The notes below the pieces were generated by a model. It saw nothing but the letters and a program-made list of their open reading frames with translations. It was not told the DNA's origin and did no database searches. From positions 4,512,001-4,576,000 of the forward strand of contig OZ245817.1 of NCBI GenBank assembly GCA_965228475.1: a DNA stretch of 64,000 nucleotides. The letters are read 5' to 3'. Both the position numbers and the translations under genes were made by a program. Numbering within the stretch: the stretch's first letter is position 1; every line of letters starts with the position of its first letter. This document shows positions 31,284 through 47,020 of the stretch, one piece after another. Origin of the DNA: Myxococcota bacterium. Its GTDB lineage: Bacteria > Myxococcota_A > UBA9160 > JAFDDA01.

Positions 31284-32312
31284 CTAGAGCACGGCCTCGG
31301 CGAGAACGCGGAGGGAGTCGGGCCGGGCGCCGCCGATCAGCATGTCGGTGACGGGCGATTCCTTCCACGCGGCGAGCCGGTCCCGGATGCGGTCCGCCGG
31401 GCCGACCAGGGCGACCTCGTCGACGAGCGAGTCCGGCACGGCCGCGAGCGCTTCGCCCTTCTTCCCGTCGAGGTAGAGATCCTGGATCGTCTTGGCCTCG
31501 GCCTCGTAGCCGAGGCGGATGGCGTAGTCGTTGTAGAAGTTCTTGCCGCGCGCGCCCATGCCGCCGATGTAGAGCGAGAGCATGCCCTTCACCGGCACCC
31601 GGCACTGGTCGAGATCGTCGCCCATCACGCAGGTCACGAACGGCGCGATCGAGAAGTCGGCGAGGCTCTTGCCGCCGCCGGCCTTCGCGAAGCCCTTCTC
31701 GAGCGCGGGCTCGAGCAGGTCGAAGCGCTCGGGGTTCATCCAGACGGGAATCAGCCCGTCGGCGACCTCGGCGCTGCACGCGATCCCCGCCGGCCCGATC
31801 GACGCCGTGAAGATCGGCAGGTCTGCGCGGCCGTGCAGGATGCTCTTCAGCGGCTTGCCGAGACCCGAGGACTTCGGCCCGTCGTAGGGCACCTGGTAGT
31901 GCTCGCCCTTGTGCTCGACCGGCGCTTCGCGCGCGAAGATCTTGCGCAGGATGTCGATGTACTCGCGCGTGCGCGTGAGCGGCTTCCCGTAGGCCGTGCC
32001 GTGCCAGCCTTCGACGACCTGGGGGCCCGACGGCCCGAGGCCGAGGATGAAGCGCCCCCCGGAGAGCTGATCGAGCGTCATGGCGGTCATCGCCGTCATG
32101 GCCGGCGTGCGCGCGGGCATCTGCATGATCGCCGTGCCGAGCCGGATCTTCGTGGTCTGGGCGGCGATCCAGGTGAGCGGCACGATCGCGTCGGAACCGT
32201 AGGCCTCCGCCGTCCAGATGGAATCGAAGCCGAGGTTCTCGGCCTCCTGGAAGAGTCCGACGTCGAGGGTGAGCTTGGCGCCGGAGTAGCCGGCGGTGAG
32301 ACCGAGTCGCAT
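31284..32312 (-). CDS. LLM-class, probably F420-dependent oxidoreductase
   Basis: [52 protein letters not shown] (Rv3520c-like pattern); AAGGAG SD. Confidence 0.9.
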
Positions 32313-40070: not shown

Positions 40071-40376
40071 TCAATCGCCCCGCAGATGTTCCTCGACGAC
40101 GCGGACCTTCTCGGCGGCGCTCGCCACCCGATCGCGGCGTTCGTCGATCTTGATGACGGTCGAAACGCGCGGCGCACCGGCGGCGAAGACCGCCTCCTGC
40201 ATCCGCTCGATCAGCGCGAACACGGCGGGTAGCTCCCCTTCGAGCGTCGTGAACATCGCGCCGAGTTCGACGGCGACCTCGTCCTGCTCCCGAGCGACGC
40301 GCAGCGCCTCGGCGACGTGGCGCCCGACGCTCGCTCCCTCTCCGATCGGCGCGATGCTCACTGCCACGATGGCCAT
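40071..40376 (-). CDS. MTH1187 family thiamine-binding protein
   Basis: VAVSIAPIGEGASV..YV-like, LGAMFTTLEGE, GAPRVSTVIKIDERRD; GGAGAGG SD. Confidence 0.9.
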   Translation of the reverse strand: MAIVAVSIAPIGEGASVGRHVAEALRVAREQDEVAVELGAMFTTLEGELPAVFALIERMQEAVFAAGAPRVSTVIKIDERRDRVASAAEKVRVVEEHLRGD

Positions 40377-41923
40377 GGATCCTCTCCTTCCCTCCCCTTC
40401 GGCGGCGGCGCCGGACGCACTGCGTCCGGGTCCCGCACGGCGGCGGCGAGCTCCGCGTAGCTGCGCCCGAGCCGCGGATGCAGGCGGTCCCCCGCCAGCT
40501 CGGCCAGCGGCTCGAGGACGAACGGCCGCTCGTGCAGACGCGGATGCGGCAGCTCGAGGGACGCCTCCGCGAGAATGCGCCCTCCGTGATCGAGCAGGTC
40601 GACGTCGAGCGTCCTCGCCGCATTGCGGTCCGGGCCCCGCTCGCGGCCCCGCTCGCGCTCGATCGCGAGGGCACGCGCGAGCAGCTGCGCCGGTTCGAGG
40701 CTGGTCCGGACGTGGACGGCGGCGTTCAGGTAGGGCTCCTGCGGCGGCGGACCGACCGGATCCGTCTCGTACAGATGCGAGCACGCCACCACTTCGATGC
40801 CCGGGGTCGCCTCGAGGGCGCGCACCGCCGCAGCCAGGTGCGCGCGGCGATTCCCGAGGTTGCTGCCGAGCGCGAGGAAGGCCTCGGAGGCCGCGTCGCC
40901 GAAGGCCCCATGGACCGGCGCGCCGGTCGCCGTGGCGCGGGTGAAGGGCACGACCCCGGCGAGCTCCGCTTCGCGAACGGCGCACGCGGGCATCGCGCAG
41001 CGGCTGCACATCACCGCGCGGCACGGGTCGAAGTGGACGATCCCTTCGCTCGCGCGCCCCGCCGCCTCGCGAACCGCCCACTGCACGCGGGCATCGATGC
41101 CGTGCAGCCGCTCGGCGTCGAAGTAGCGCGGGACGGTCAGGTGCAGATCCGTGTGGACGAAGTCTCCCGAGCGCCACGCCCGGAGCGAGTGCACGTCGAT
41201 CCAGCTCGGCTCGCGCGCGTCGTCCAGGGCGGCGACGATCCCGTCGAGCAGCGGGTCGTCGGCCTCGTCCATCAAGCCACCGATCGCCTCGCGCACCAGC
41301 GCGTAGCCCGTTGCGAAGACGTGGGCCGCAACGCACAGGGCGACGACCGGGTCGAGCCACAGCCAGCCCGTGACCCACACGGCGAGCAGGCCGCCGATCA
41401 CGCCCGCGCTCGTGTAGACGTCGGCGAGTACGTGCTTGCCGTCGGCTTCGAGCGCGAGGGAGCCCGTGCGGCGGCCGGTGCGCACGAGGTGCCATCCGAG
41501 CGCGCCGTTCGCGATGGCTGCCAGCGAGAGCAGTGCGAGGCCGGTGTCGAGCCTCGCCACCTCCGGGCCCGCCAGGAGTTCGCCCAGGGCTTCCCAGAGG
41601 ATCGCCGCGCCGGCGACGGCCACGAGCGCACCCTCAACGCCCGCCGAGAAGAACTCGACCTTGCCGTGGCCGTAGGGGTGATTCGGGTCCGGCGGCCGCG
41701 CCGCCACGCGCAGGCTGAAGAGGAGCATCCCCGCCGCGGCGACGTTCACGAGGGATTCGACGGCGTCCGAGAAGACGGCGGCCGAACCGGTGATGCCCGT
41801 GGCGACGAACTTCGCGCCGCAGATGGCGATGCCGGCGAACAGGGCCAACCGGCCCGCCGCGAGCCGCTCTGCATCCCGCCCGCCCGTGGCTTCGCCCTCG
41901 CCGGGCTCCTTCCGCGACCTCAT
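40358..41923 (-). CDS. folK: fusion: cation diffusion facilitator transporter + HPPK (FolK)
   Basis: CDF motifs SDAVESLVN, PPDPNHPYGHGKVE, ADGKHVLAD, LDP, HFDPC. Continues in frame into LALGSNLG, LYETDPVG, YLNAA, ARTLDVDLL, LPHPRLHERPFVLEPLAEL. Confidence 0.88.
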   Translation of the reverse strand: MRSRKEPGEGEATGGRDAERLAAGRLALFAGIAICGAKFVATGITGSAAVFSDAVESLVNVAAAGMLLFSLRVAARPPDPNHPYGHGKVEFFSAGVEGALVAVAGAAILWEALGELLAGPEVARLDTGLALLSLAAIANGALGWHLVRTGRRTGSLALEADGKHVLADVYTSAGVIGGLLAVWVTGWLWLDPVVALCVAAHVFATGYALVREAIGGLMDEADDPLLDGIVAALDDAREPSWIDVHSLRAWRSGDFVHTDLHLTVPRYFDAERLHGIDARVQWAVREAAGRASEGIVHFDPCRAVMCSRCAMPACAVREAELAGVVPFTRATATGAPVHGAFGDAASEAFLALGSNLGNRRAHLAAAVRALEATPGIEVVACSHLYETDPVGPPPQEPYLNAAVHVRTSLEPAQLLARALAIERERGRERGPDRNAARTLDVDLLDHGGRILAEASLELPHPRLHERPFVLEPLAELAGDRLHPRLGRSYAELAAAVRDPDAVRPAPPPKGREGEDPWPSWQ

Positions 41924-41945: not shown

Positions 41946-43220
41946 GTGTCCGACGTCACCCTGCTCCCCGAGATCGTGACCGGCATCCCCGGCCCCCGCT
42001 CGCGCGAACTCGCGAAGCGACTCGCGGCGGTGGAGAGCCGGAACGTCACGTGCCTCACGCCCGGCGCGCCGATCTTCTGGGAGCGGGCCTCCGGCGCGAA
42101 CGTCGTGGACGTCGACGGAAACCGCTTCGTGGATCTCGGCGGCGGCTTCGGCGTGGCGAACGTCGGCCACGGACACCCGCGCGTCGCCGGGGCCGTGGCG
42201 CGGCAGGCCGAGACGCTTCTTCACGGCATGGGCGACGTCCACCCTTCCGCCGTGAAGGTGGATCTGCTCGAGGCCCTCACCGCGCGCTTCCCGGGCGGCG
42301 AACCCGCCCGCGCCGTGCTCACGAGCTCCGGCTCCGACGCCGTCGAGACCGCGTTGAAGACGGCGCTGCTCGCGACGGGGAACCCGGGCGTCGTGGCCTT
42401 CGACGGCGGCTACCACGGCCTCTCGCTCGGCGCCCTCGACGCGACCGCGCGCGAGGACTTCCGCGCCCCGTTCATCGACCGGCTGCCGGGTGCCACGGTC
42501 TTCGCCCGCTACGGAGACGCCGACGACGCCGCGCGAGCCGCCCGCGCGGCCGGCGTCGCGATCGGAGCCGTGCTGGTCGAACCGGTCCAGGGCCGGGGCG
42601 GCGAGCGCGTTCCCCCCGAAGGATTCCTGCGCGCCCTGCGCGCGCTCTGCGACCAGAACGGTTGGCTCCTCATCGTCGACGAGGTCTACACCGGCTTCGG
42701 CCGGACCGGACGCTGGTTCGCCTGCGAGCACGAAGACGTCGTGCCGGACCTCCTCTGCCTCGGCAAGGGCCTCGCTTCGGGCATGCCGCTCTCGGCCTGC
42801 ATGGGCCCGGCCCGCGTGATGGACGCCTGGCCCCTTTCCGAAGGCGAAGCGCTCCACACCCAGACCTACCTCGGGCACCCGCCGGGCTGCGCCGCCGCCC
42901 TCGCATCGCTCGCGGTGCTCGAGGAAGAGCGCCTCGTCGAGCGCTCGGCGCGGCTCGGGGCGGAGGCGCTCGCGGCACTCGAACGCGACACCCGCGGTGT
43001 CTCGAACGTGCACGAGGTCCGCGGCCTCGGGCTGATGATCGGCATCGAGTGTGCTTCGCCGGAAGTGGCGCTGGCGGCGGTCACGCGCTGCCTCGAGGCC
43101 GGCGTGATCCTCCTGCCCTCGGGCGAGGACGGCCGGGTGCTCTCCATCACGCCGCCGCTCTCGATCGGCGAGGAGGCGCTCCGCTTCGCGCTCGGCGTGC
43201 TGGTCGGGAGCCTCTCGTGA
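41946..43220 (+). CDS. class III (omega-type) PLP aminotransferase
   Basis: PGPRS, DVDGNRFVD, VGHGHP, SGSDAVE, GGYHG, VEPVQGRGG, DEVYTGFGRTG, LGKGLASGMP. Confidence 0.92.
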   Translation: MSDVTLLPEIVTGIPGPRSRELAKRLAAVESRNVTCLTPGAPIFWERASGANVVDVDGNRFVDLGGGFGVANVGHGHPRVAGAVARQAETLLHGMGDVHPSAVKVDLLEALTARFPGGEPARAVLTSSGSDAVETALKTALLATGNPGVVAFDGGYHGLSLGALDATAREDFRAPFIDRLPGATVFARYGDADDAARAARAAGVAIGAVLVEPVQGRGGERVPPEGFLRALRALCDQNGWLLIVDEVYTGFGRTGRWFACEHEDVVPDLLCLGKGLASGMPLSACMGPARVMDAWPLSEGEALHTQTYLGHPPGCAAALASLAVLEEERLVERSARLGAEALAALERDTRGVSNVHEVRGLGLMIGIECASPEVALAAVTRCLEAGVILLPSGEDGRVLSITPPLSIGEEALRFALGVLVGSLS

Positions 43221-44347
43221 ACGGCGACCCGGCACGCCGCGCGATCGACTCCGCGATCTGTGCGTGGATGCGGGAGCCCGGCGCCCTCGACGCCTCCGCC
43301 GAAGCGACCGAAGCCCGCTTCGAGGCGCTCGCCCTCGAACTCTTCGCCTTCCAGTACGCGCACTGCGAACCCTACCGGCGCTTCTGCGACGGCCGGAAGC
43401 GAACGCCCGAGAGCGTCCGTGGCTGGCGCCAGATTCCGCCGGTCCCGACCGGCGCCTTCAAGGAGATGGCGCTGCGCTCCTTCCCGGCAGCGCGGGAGCG
43501 GCACGTCTTCCGGACGAGCGGAACCAGCACCGAGGCGCGCGGCACGCTGCACCTCGACACGCTCGAACTCTACGAGGCCTCCCTGCTCGCGAGCTTCCGG
43601 GCGGGCCTCCTTCCGGATCTCGAGAGCCGGGCGATCGCCCTCCCCGTCCTCGCCCCGAGCGCCGAAGCCGCGCCGGATTCCTCGCTCTCCCACATGTTCG
43701 CGACGGTCCTGCGCGAGCTGCCCCTGGCCGGCGGCGGCTTCTTCCTTCCCGAGGGAGACGGGGCGGACGGGTCGAGCTGGGATGCCCCGCTCGCGCGCCT
43801 CCGCGGATTCGCGGAGGGCGGCGACGCGGTCGCGCTCTGCGGTACGGCCTTCGCCTTCGTCCACGCGACCGACGCCCTCGCCGAGCGCGGCGAAGCGATC
43901 CCCCTCCCGGACGGCTCTCGCGTGATGGAAACCGGCGGCTTCAAGGGCCGCTCGCGGGAGGTCCCGCGCGAGGAACTCCACGCCTCGATCACGCGGGCGT
44001 TCGGCGTCCCCGGCGAGCGGATCGTGAACCAGTACGGCATGACCGAGCTCGGCAGCCAGTTCTACGATTCCGTCCTGCGCCGGCCCGGCGAGCCCCGCCG
44101 CAAGCTCGCCCCCCCGTGGACGCGCGTGCGTCTCGTCGACCCGGCGACGGGCGAGGACGCCCCTGACGGCGCGCCCGGGGCGATCGTGCTCTACGACCTC
44201 GCGAACACGGGAAGCGTCTTCGCCCTGCAGACCGCGGACCTCGGCCGGAGCGTCGACGACGGCTTCGAGGTGATCGGACGAGAGCCAGGCGCCGAAGCGC
44301 GCGGCTGTTCCATCGCCGCGGATGCGATGCTCGCCGGCGCGCGATGA
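43217..44347 (+). CDS. luxE: LuxE-like acyl-protein synthetase
   Basis: GTG overlaps the upstream stop; FAFQY, IPPVP..FK, FRTSGTS, METGGFKGR, YGMTELGSQ, DLAN, QTADLG, GR..AEARGCS (acylated Cys). Confidence 0.85.
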   Translation: MNGDPARRAIDSAICAWMREPGALDASAEATEARFEALALELFAFQYAHCEPYRRFCDGRKRTPESVRGWRQIPPVPTGAFKEMALRSFPAARERHVFRTSGTSTEARGTLHLDTLELYEASLLASFRAGLLPDLESRAIALPVLAPSAEAAPDSSLSHMFATVLRELPLAGGGFFLPEGDGADGSSWDAPLARLRGFAEGGDAVALCGTAFAFVHATDALAERGEAIPLPDGSRVMETGGFKGRSREVPREELHASITRAFGVPGERIVNQYGMTELGSQFYDSVLRRPGEPRRKLAPPWTRVRLVDPATGEDAPDGAPGAIVLYDLANTGSVFALQTADLGRSVDDGFEVIGREPGAEARGCSIAADAMLAGAR

Positions 44348-45537
44348 TCGCGAACCTGAGAGCGACGGGCGCCGCCCTCGGCGCCCTCACCCCCGAGGAG
44401 GTCACCGCCGGCCTCGGCCGGTTGCTCGACGCGTGGTCGCGCCCGGACTCGGCGGAGCGGAGGGAGCTCGCCGGCGCGCTGCCCGATACGTCGGGCCTTT
44501 CTTCGGCGACCGTCGCCGCCGGCCTCGACCGCGCGCTCGCGGGCTGGAACGCGGCCGCGCTCGAGCGCCTCGTCGAAGCGGAACTCGGGCAGCTGCCGAG
44601 CGAGCCGCTCCCGGGCATCACCACCGTCGTGCACGGCGGCGTGATCCCGATGCCCGCCCTCGTCGATCTCCTCGCACCGCTCCTGCTACGCGGTGCCGTC
44701 CTCGCGCGCCCGGGTCGGCACGATCCAATCACGCCCAGCCTCTTCCGGCGCAGCCTCGAAACCCACGCGCCCGCCCTCGCCGGGGCCATCGGCGTCGCGA
44801 GCTTCGGCCGGGAAGACGAAGGCGCCTGGCGGGAAGCTCTCTCGGCGGAGCGGGTCTGCATCACCGGCGGCGACGCGGCGGTCGCGGCGGTGAGGGAGAA
44901 GCTCGGCCCCGGGACGCGGCTCGTCGCCCACGGCGACAAGTTCTCCCTCGCCGTGCTCGGCCCCGACGCCGCGGACCTCGAGGCCGCCGCCCGCGCCCTC
45001 GCCGAAGACGTCGCGCTCTGGGACCAGCTTGGGTGCCTCTCGCCGGTCGCCTGCTGGGTGATCGGCGCGCCGGACCGGAGCCAGGCCTTCGCAGCCTGCC
45101 TCTCCGCCGCCCTCGGCGGACGCGAACGCGCATGGCCCCGCGGTGCGGTCGACCCCGCCTCCCGCGCGGCCATCGCCCACGAACGCGCGGAAGCGGAGAT
45201 GCGCGCCGCCGCGGGCCGCGCCGTCGCCCTCCACGCCGAGGACGCCTTCACCGTCGTCGCCGAAGCGGACGCCGCCCCGCGCCCGGCGCCCCTGCACCGC
45301 TTCGTGCGTGTGCACCCGAGCGCAACCCTCGCCGAGACGCAGGAAGCACTCGCGCCCCTTGCGGACCGCGTCGCCGGAATCGCACAGCTGGGGTTCGGCG
45401 ACCCTGAGCAGTTCGAGCAGTTCGCCGCCGCGCTCGGCGCCACGTGGACGGCGCCCTTCGGCCGCCTCCAGGCCCCGCCGCTCCACTGGGCCCGCGACGG
45501 CCTCGGCCCCCTGCGCGCGCTCCTGACGGACCGCTAG
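44344..45537 (+). CDS. luxC: LuxC-like acyl-CoA/acyl-protein reductase
   Basis: ATGA overlap; TGGDAAV, HGDKFS, ALAEDVALWDQLGCLSP (catalytic Cys), GRLQAPPLHWARDG. Confidence 0.82.
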   Translation: MIANLRATGAALGALTPEEVTAGLGRLLDAWSRPDSAERRELAGALPDTSGLSSATVAAGLDRALAGWNAAALERLVEAELGQLPSEPLPGITTVVHGGVIPMPALVDLLAPLLLRGAVLARPGRHDPITPSLFRRSLETHAPALAGAIGVASFGREDEGAWREALSAERVCITGGDAAVAAVREKLGPGTRLVAHGDKFSLAVLGPDAADLEAAARALAEDVALWDQLGCLSPVACWVIGAPDRSQAFAACLSAALGGRERAWPRGAVDPASRAAIAHERAEAEMRAAAGRAVALHAEDAFTVVAEADAAPRPAPLHRFVRVHPSATLAETQEALAPLADRVAGIAQLGFGDPEQFEQFAAALGATWTAPFGRLQAPPLHWARDGLGPLRALLTDR

Positions 45538-46378: not shown

Positions 46379-47020
46379 CTAGTCTTCCTGGCCGGGGTAG
46401 GCGAGCAGCGCCAGGTGGCGCGCGCGCTTGATCGCCAGGCAGACTTCGCGCTGCTGCTTCGCGGTGTTACCCGAGATGCGGCGCGGGACGATCTTGCCCG
46501 TCTCCGTCAGGAAGTAACGCAGGGTCTTCGGGTCGCGGTAGTCGACCTCGAGCGTCTGGTCCGTCGTGAGACGGGAAACCTTGCCGCGAACGACCGCCTG
46601 ACCCGAGCGCGCCTTCTGCTTCTGCAGGCGCCGGGCCTTCTTGCGGGCCTTGGCGCGCAGCCGGCCCTTGACCGTCTGGGGTGCGCGGGGCCGATCGCCG
46701 CGGTCGCCCGGACGTCCACGTCCGCCGCCGCGCGGGCCGTCGCCGCGGAAGCCGCCGCCGCCGCCGCCGGGACCGTCGCTGCGGAAACCACCGGGGCCGT
46801 CGCCGCCGCCGCGCGGGCCGCTCGGGGGTCCATCGCCACCGCCGCGGGGGCCACTCGGGGGGCCGTCACCGCCGCCACGCGGGCCGCTCGGGGGCCCGTC
46901 GCCGCCACCGCGGGGGCCGCTCGGAGGTCCACCGGCCGGACCGCTCGGCGGACCGCCAGCGCCGCGCGGGCCTGCGGGGGGAGTGGGGCGCGATTCGTCG
47001 CCGGAGTTCTCTTCGGACAT
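46379..47020 (-). CDS. rpsR: 30S ribosomal protein S18 with long Gly/Pro/Arg-rich N-terminal extension
   Basis: [55 protein letters not shown] before MSEENSG. Confidence 0.92.
46795..46930 (-). repeat. 33-bp coding tandem repeat, ([11 protein letters not shown])x4, in rpsR
   Basis: Four identical peptide copies with differing synonymous codons. Confidence 0.85.

Follow-up and report, generated by a model that had tools for sequence, protein, structure and literature searches.

A three-gene operon in the genome of a Myxococcota bacterium (GTDB lineage Bacteria; Myxococcota_A; UBA9160; JAFDDA01; assembly GCA_965228475.1) probably encodes a nitrile-free route to 7-aminomethyl-7-deazaguanine (preQ1), the base from which queuosine is made in tRNA. 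The operon lies in a window of 64,000 nucleotides (contig OZ245817.1, positions 4,512,001 to 4,576,000; positions given below are those of the window) and codes for a class III aminotransferase (AT), a LuxE-like protein and a LuxC-like protein. We propose that this trio would convert 7-carboxy-7-deazaguanine (CDG) to 7-formyl-7-deazaguanine and then to preQ1, as a non-orthologous replacement of QueC and QueF. The proposal is based on the absence of QueC and QueF from genomes in which QueE and QueA are kept, and on the linkage of the genes to queE and queD. The lack of carboxylate-binding arginines in the AT and of the queuine-type motif in both Tgt proteins was also counted in its favour. What was observed directly is the set of genes with its catalytic residues, linkage and distribution, whereas substrate and product, direction, reducing cofactor (NADPH or NADH) and amino donor are inferred; the reaction types assigned to the trio would follow the established chemistry of LuxE/LuxC and of class III transaminases.

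A core operon of the order

The AT gene (41946-43220, plus strand, GTG start, 424 aa) matched PF00202 with 323 bits. The LuxE-like gene (43217-44347, plus strand, 376 aa) matched PF04443 with 62.5 bits for a cut-off of 24.9, and the LuxC-like gene (44344-45537, plus strand, 397 aa) matched PF05893 with 127.6 bits for a cut-off of 21. The AT stop overlapped the LuxE-like start in GTGA, and the overlap of the LuxE-like and LuxC-like genes was ATGA. The coordinates of the open reading frames (ORFs) and the Pfam matches thus agree with the first-pass annotation of this DNA, which had described three genes coupled by such overlaps.

The same annotation had suggested examining the neighbourhood for conservation of the triad, and this was found. 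Both the LuxE-like gene and the AT (E<1e-100) were present in 61/61 genomes of the order, and the AT was located directly upstream of the LuxE-like gene (best matches adjacent) in 58 of them. In two of the three exceptions, the 3' half of the AT was visible upstream, at a contig end. The presence of the LuxC-like gene in the order was counted from 30 loci and 20 wider regions, and the full order AT-E-C was observed in 27 of the 30 loci, the remaining three being cut by contig ends. The linkage is not due to chance, and the trio is a single-copy core operon of the order, not a specialised cluster. This pointed to a housekeeping pathway lacking a step from acid to amine, and such a pathway was sought.

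An apparent gap between CDG and preQ1

The genome carrying the window is 96% complete and in one contig. The pathway calls rest on hidden Markov model results, as motif screens missed true genes (ProA, DapF). FolE, Tgt, QueA and QueG were all above their NCBIfam cut-offs and the four GUN tRNAs were present. For QueC, just a 58-position N-terminal match was obtained in this genome, and the QueF match fell in folE. Across the order, a QueE orthologue was found in 114/121 genomes, including all 78 of high quality, and QueA in 30 of the 32 genomes tested. QueF was found in 0/121 genomes (control 6/14), and QueC was above its cut-off in 2/121, with two more split or partial (control 9/14). With QueE and QueA kept and QueC and QueF missing, it appears that CDG is made and preQ1 used in the order without the known link between them. 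The change from CDG to preQ1 is that of a carboxylate to an aminomethyl group, which is what the trio should do.

Two bacterial-type Tgt paralogues exist in the genome carrying the window (L051:2022-3092 and L220:5152-6192; 49% identical), both above the TIGR00430 cut-off. The pocket cysteine is conserved in each, and where queuine-type enzymes have the motif given as GG[LS][AS]G in 10.1101/2023.12.05.570228, their sequences are GGLGLGE and GGVSVGE. They look like ordinary preQ1-type enzymes. The same genome (G000) also has a tandem pair of divergent QueD/PTPS-like genes upstream of folE (L052:3159-4574), which share 35% identity; they possibly form a heteromeric QueD, or one of them possibly serves folate or pterin synthesis.

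Distribution in other lineages

The LuxE-like family comprised 841 clusters at 50% identity (E<1e-30; both of the clades described below counted). Searching GTDB genomes with an alignment of 73 diverse LuxE-like proteins gave at least 596 loci, and the best 80 were analysed further. They fell into 31 loci of an SDR/NMT1 type (four assigned via LuxC likeness, at contig ends) and 49 of another type, to which the present trio belongs. In a FastTree phylogeny of 88 rows, the SDR type (30 rows, after one locus had been dropped) came out as a single clade with support 99, nested within the rest. Fusions of a zinc alcohol dehydrogenase to a LuxE-like domain (P0128-P0132, P0173, P0180; two in the tree) were sister to the SDR-linked clade, and LuxE-LuxC fusions also exist (P0124, P0133, P0153, P0164).

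The queuosine genes were searched for in 41 of the 49 genomes of the trio's type, leaving out five that resembled the order itself and three near-duplicates of included taxa, and in nine of the 31 SDR-type genomes as controls. QueF was found in 0/41 of the former and 8/9 of the latter, and QueC was above its cut-off in 1/41 and 8/9, respectively, a comparison that is confounded with phylum since the nine controls were all Pseudomonadota or Bacillota. Among the same 41 genomes, a QueE-like protein was present in 36 and QueA in 37; the QueE profile (A2) was used for these carriers only, as it misses proteobacterial QueE types (4/9 controls).

A comparison within one phylum was made with 201 Verrucomicrobiota genomes retained by a 90% completeness filter, eight of which carried the LuxE-like gene (one being G159). 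QueF was present in 165/193 genomes without the gene and in 0/8 with it (Fisher p=5e-7, a value overstated since kin are not independent). The eight carriers, all of which have QueA, were located on several LuxE branches, though three of them are close relatives.

The SDR-type operons and possible thiamin salvage

The nearest sister clade of the trio's LuxE-like proteins consists of uncharacterised luxE-luxC-SDR operons of Pseudomonadota and Bacillota, about 40% identical and with the same catalytic residues. Thiamin pyrophosphate (TPP) riboswitches were recorded for two plasmid members of this type, from Azospirillum and Pantoea, the 31 SDR-type loci themselves not being scanned. In these two operons (L096:6641-12767 and L097:6670-10307), the riboswitch is followed by luxE-like and luxC-like genes, an NMT1/THI5 ABC transporter (Azospirillum only) and an SDR gene. 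The arrangement looks like an acid-to-alcohol salvage of a thiamin fragment. The activating steps that were lacking when OarX tested negative in PMC11223231 may be provided by these operons.

Such relatives raise the question of whether the trio itself salvages an oxidised vitamin fragment, converting a thiamin pyrimidine or thiazole carboxylic acid to an aldehyde and then an amine; acids of this kind are named as orphan breakdown products in PMC11223231. We consider this highly unlikely. The TPP-linked relatives are a clade of their own with no adjacent AT, they end in an SDR (alcohol) where the trio has a transaminase, and they occur in genomes that keep QueC and QueF. They also differ at fixed positions, e.g., Met160 of the LuxE-like protein, which was found in 56/56 sequences against a tyrosine in 30/30 of the SDR clade. 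The window is devoid of TPP riboswitches, and its genome has a ThiC candidate (by motif only).

Linkage to queE and queD

Outside the order, several loci placed the genes directly beside those of CDG synthesis. Locus L113 showed queE, a small ORF, the AT, a 1.4-kb gap, luxE and luxC; L171 showed queE-luxE-luxC and L213 AT-luxE-luxC-queD. The order luxE-luxC-queD was found in L168, L172, L174 and L214, and also in L161 with an inserted transporter. The NCBIfam cut-offs were passed by the QueE of L113 and the QueD of L168 and L213, the QueE of L171 falling slightly short. In four Verrucomicrobiota genomes (G155, G159, G160 and G161; L194-L197), queE was followed directly by an AT of the same subfamily as that of the trio (48-50% identity); G155, G159 and G160, which are close kin, also carry luxE-luxC-queD.

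A Gfo/Idh/MocA gene is located immediately before queE in L113. A Gfo/Idh/MocA oxidoreductase also lies downstream of the luxE-luxC-AT run in L156, L167 and L170, with a CoA-binding protein upstream, an arrangement common to Acidobacteriota, Verrucomicrobiota and Vulcanimicrobiota records.

A contig of 16 kb with the label Pseudovibrio (L208:160-16056; G144:C77) carried folE, adenylosuccinate lyase, a queE-like gene, queD, an AT, a HAD gene, adenylosuccinate synthetase, a phosphoribosyltransferase, GMP reductase/IMPDH, luxE, luxC, a P450 and a subtilase. QueC and QueF were not found in the genome bearing this label. Apart from the AT, luxE, luxC, the P450 and the subtilase, these families match the toyocamycin signature set listed in 10.64898/2026.04.15.718813, where the only 'lux' matches were to LuxR; the AT, luxE and luxC lie inside this set. 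The trio appears to stand here where QueC would act, in a secondary-metabolite setting.

The LuxE-like and LuxC-like proteins

The only sequence matches of the two proteins in the PDB were the LuxE and LuxC chains of 7XC6 (chain E for the LuxE-like protein, E=1e-11; chain A for the LuxC-like protein). They are nevertheless far from true LuxE and LuxC, with 47.8 bits against a cut-off of 550 for NF052244 (LuxE) and 37.6 bits against 750 for NF052251 (LuxC). Lys243, Arg355 and Cys364 (in RGCS) of the LuxE-like protein were invariant across 106 aligned homologues, and Cys231 of the LuxC-like protein (in DQLGCLSP) across 71, which bears out the earlier statement that both cysteines are kept. A structure model of the LuxE-like protein (pLDDT 93) had PaaK1/2, BT_0428, ClxA and NatL2 as best folds and was nearest to PaaK-type aryl-acid ligases (TM ~0.6). 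The NVWFKYV stretch of true LuxE is replaced by a polar SSL-x-x-M stretch; these residues and Met160 may line the acid pocket. The LuxE-like protein is predicted to be a CDG-activating enzyme, a PaaK-fold adenylating acyl-protein synthetase with a C-terminal swinging Cys364, and the LuxC-like protein a thioester reductase of the aldehyde dehydrogenase (ALDH) fold that would release 7-formyl-7-deazaguanine.

The first-pass annotation had favoured a fatty amine, omega-amino acid or diamine as the product. In such a reading, a fatty acid would be turned into a fatty aldehyde and then into a fatty amine destined for a lipid or natural product, along the lines of TamA/TamH or TabE/TabA. In its favour, no sequence relatives other than the 7XC6 fatty acid reductase subunits have been characterised, and this logic has been proven for the tails of tambjamines (10.1101/2025.08.11.669332). 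An AT without carboxylate-binding arginines would also suit an alkylamine, and genes of a core set could well act on a lipid of the envelope. The reading leaves unexplained, however, the exclusion of QueF (0/121, 0/41 and 0/8 against 165/193) and the adjacency to queE and queD. The equivalog scores were below one-tenth of the cut-offs and the best structural matches of the LuxE-like model were aryl-acid ligases. A LuxD family match was obtained in 0/5 genomes of the order, the one carrying the window included, in line with the absence of luxD noted earlier for the locus; among the neighbours examined, none of the genes that recur next to the trio encodes an acyl carrier protein (ACP), an acyltransferase or a lipid enzyme. 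A fatty amine is thus quite improbable. The mirrored absence of QueC and QueF, the linkage to queE, queD and a 7-deazapurine cluster and the lack of lipid neighbours all speak against the product first proposed. The general logic of that annotation, a non-luminescent LuxE/LuxC pair with a transaminase leading from acid to aldehyde to amine, is likely and describes a conserved unit; its fatty-acid substrate is probably wrong.

The earlier absence of luxA and luxB concerned the locus. In the window, one gene of luciferase fold was tested and is not LuxA/B, the rest of the genome not being searched for these; the gene (31284-32312, opposite strand, about 10 kb away) encodes an F420-dependent oxidoreductase of the luciferase-like monooxygenase class (above the TIGR03559 cut-off).

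The aminotransferase

The AT belongs to class III (fold-type I) and has a conserved pyridoxal phosphate lysine, Lys274, in the family alignment. It reached no NCBIfam cut-off among its best 25 families (at best 308.8 of 639 bits). In an alignment to GabT structures, Leu159, Arg217, Tyr248 and Ser400 stood at the Arg, Glu, Gln and Arg positions of GABA transaminase, of which the Arg, Glu and Arg positions are the carboxylate-binding arginines and the Glu-Arg switch. The subfamily formed a 21-row clade in a tree of 31 rows (support 98/97) with six phylum labels; Arg217 was present in 21/21 and position 159 was Leu or Val in 21/21. The AT is predicted to be a 7-formyl-7-deazaguanine transaminase. 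An ordinary GabT or ArgD, which would have undone the earlier interpretation, is not what was found, given the missing arginines and the lack of a match above the cut-off among the best 25 NCBIfam families.

The closest characterised enzymes are GabT, ArgD and putrescine transaminases, and ArgC was below its cut-off in the genome carrying the window and in G008, which would suit a step of amino-acid metabolism (an ornithine route like that of ArgB/C/D, or aminoadipate to lysine). This explanation, taken together with amine catabolism by the reverse reactions, is extremely unlikely. ArgC was above its cut-off in three of five carriers and ProA in four of five, the genome carrying the window has a lysA-dapF-dapA-dapB run and a separate ArgD-like enzyme, and the AT is without the substrate-carboxylate arginine. 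As for the reverse direction, raised in the first-pass annotation as an alternative, ATP-dependent adenylation favours the reductive direction, according to the established LuxE chemistry (PMC9157457), and neither the pattern of QueC/QueF absence nor the linkage to queE and queD supports catabolism. In G000 and G008, where ArgC was not found above the cut-off, ornithine may be made by another route; G000 does have ProA, an ArgD-like enzyme and an argH-like gene.

The proposed route and its known counterparts

In the route that we propose, the LuxE-like protein would activate CDG with ATP to CDG-AMP and then hold the acyl group as a thioester on Cys364. The acyl group would pass to Cys231 of the LuxC-like protein, where a hydride from NAD(P)H would yield 7-formyl-7-deazaguanine, and the AT would convert the latter to preQ1. 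Tgt, QueA and QueG would then take preQ1 to queuosine in tRNA. This aldehyde has been described before, as a compound that QueF variants release (PMC13740343).

The relay itself has a well-described counterpart in LuxC-LuxE of Photobacterium phosphoreum (7XC6; PMC9157457), for which the acyl relay chemistry is established: LuxE uses Lys238 and Arg355 with the C-terminal Cys364, and LuxC uses Cys296. The trio shares with this system the families, the adenylation Lys and Arg, the carrier Cys364 and the reductase cysteine. It differs in lying far below the equivalog cut-offs, in having no luciferase in the locus and no LuxD found, in its coupling to a transaminase and in its predicted heteroaromatic substrate; the LuxC-like protein, with 397 aa against 477 aa, is about 80 residues shorter.

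Compared with the canonical QueC/QueF pathway (PMC13740343; 10.64898/2026.04.15.718813), the predicted route would have the same start (CDG), the same end (preQ1), the same upstream FolE, QueD and QueE and the same downstream Tgt, QueA and QueG. The proteins are unrelated, an aldehyde takes the place of the nitrile intermediate, and no preQ0 would be formed. The predicted route would consume one NAD(P)H and an amino donor, where the canonical one takes two NADPH and ammonia.

The tambjamine enzymes TamA/TamH and TabQ/TabE/TabA likewise lead from an activated acid to an aldehyde and an amine, with a proven thioester reduction and transamination by an omega-transaminase (10.1101/2025.08.11.669332). 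As described there, they use an ACP and sit in biosynthetic clusters, whereas the trio has the LuxE carrier cysteine, no ACP and a place in a single-copy core operon.

A weak likeness (TM ~0.55) was also seen between the LuxE-like model and 3HGV, which we take to be EhpF. The EhpF/EhpG pair reduces phenazine dicarboxylate. Unlike the trio, it is without a transaminase. It consists of a PaaK-like AMP-binding protein beside an ALDH-family protein in a heteroaromatic-acid pathway (PMC11278526).

Observations that weigh against the route

Several observations count against the proposed preQ1 route. The QueE-like radical SAM protein of the genome carrying the window, whose four best families are QueE models, scored 79.5 bits for an NCBIfam cut-off of 206, and its two QueD-like proteins, for which QueD families were likewise the best matches, scored 53 and 59 bits for a cut-off of 89, so that we can only infer CDG synthesis in this genome. 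Four members of the order have QueC alongside the LuxE-like gene (none has QueF), one of them with queC in a separate queC-queE-queD cluster. Full-length matches to the QueC family were present in 4 of the 41 outside genomes (one above the cut-off and three weak, one of the weak ones being QueC-family by Pfam). In the five Verrucomicrobiota carriers tested, QueC was above the cut-off in 0/5, with one full-length match below it. Besides the confounding with phylum mentioned above, most genomes were metagenome-assembled and kin are not independent.

The linkage is also uneven. In the order, the trio adjoins no que gene among its recurring neighbours, and most of the 49 loci, including all those of the order itself, have no que gene within 6 kb. 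A QPTR/YhhQ transporter, found in two of the five genomes tested, is present in the genome carrying the window, so salvage could supply preQ1; this does not explain the retention of QueE in 78/78 good genomes. No Rfam riboswitch, either preQ1 or TPP, was matched in the window or in the que loci of its genome (three loci apart from the window), and a scan of 11 loci of other phyla yielded tRNAs only. The TPP riboswitch upstream of the sister clade (2/2 tested) implies that the LuxE family has at least two substrates.

The AT is not uniform either. Among the 18 adjacent ATs placed in the tree, five fall into a second subfamily, a close AT match was absent from two of five genomes tested, and the first subfamily is encoded away from luxE/luxC in two Gemmatimonadota genomes and one Acidobacteriota genome. 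The existence of two subfamilies, and of genomes without a close AT, would suit a 7-deazapurine module acting otherwise: on a CDG nucleotide, on CDG in tRNA, as a reductase pair working with various transaminases, or toward another deazapurine product. The phosphoribosyltransferase and nucleotide-tailoring enzymes of the Pseudovibrio-labelled cluster and the two Tgt paralogues point the same way. Such a module is very unlikely for the trio, since both Tgt proteins look like the ordinary preQ1 type, the LuxE-like protein has a small-molecule PaaK-type fold with no RNA-binding domain by Pfam, and the AT itself is found in operons with queE. The preQ1 route thus stays the preferred explanation.

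Genomic surroundings of the trio

The trio is flanked, according to Pfam, by a CDF-FolK ORF and an enoyl-CoA hydratase gene. The former (40358-41923, minus strand) is a single ORF joining a cation-efflux (CDF) transporter to HPPK/FolK, parts that are seemingly separate in several relatives. In 21 regions of the order, the recurring neighbours were folK, cysH and suf genes (the latter recognised from their sequences), which reflects vertical synteny; an ACP with a bipyrrole or lipid cluster, as in the tambjamine systems, was not found among them. A further ORF (46379-47020, minus strand) starts with a long repetitive stretch rich in Gly and Pro, and its C-terminus resembles ribosomal protein S18 by eye (no NCBIfam match at E<1e-30). 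The promoter and terminator scan was uninformative at the GC content of this DNA. No relative of the LuxE-like protein was found in viral contigs and phage genomes. The organisms named for close homologues and the labels in the tree agree with an assignment to Myxococcota.

Implications

Beyond the present order, we think it probable that the trio represents a second, nitrile-free de novo route to preQ1 in many mostly uncultured lineages (this Myxococcota order, Gemmatimonadota, parts of Verrucomicrobiota, Acidobacteriota, Vulcanimicrobiota, Armatimonadota, Sumerlaeota and others), with recruitment into a 7-deazapurine nucleoside cluster and, in a derived clade, into thiamin-fragment salvage. 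At its centre would be a LuxE/LuxC-type enzyme pair that reduces heteroaryl carboxylic acids without CoA or ACP, and the LuxE/LuxC scaffold would in nature serve mainly as a heteroaromatic acid reductase. The literature covered, which excluded subscription journals and bioRxiv supplements, contained no description of LuxE/LuxC homologues acting in queuosine or preQ1 synthesis. What would be new is the route, as the families and the product, a cofactor-like base, were already known.

If this is correct, there would be two ways through the central step of the queuosine pathway, which is regarded as fully mapped in bacteria. Many genomes scored as incapable of making queuosine for lack of queC and queF would be producers, and maps of the queuine supply in soils, sediments and waters would change. 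The Pseudovibrio-labelled cluster predicts an undescribed nucleoside resembling aminomethyl-deazaadenosine. A large unannotated LuxE/LuxC family would receive a function, and with it a phosphopantetheine-free carboxylic acid reductase for heteroaromatic acids would be at hand.

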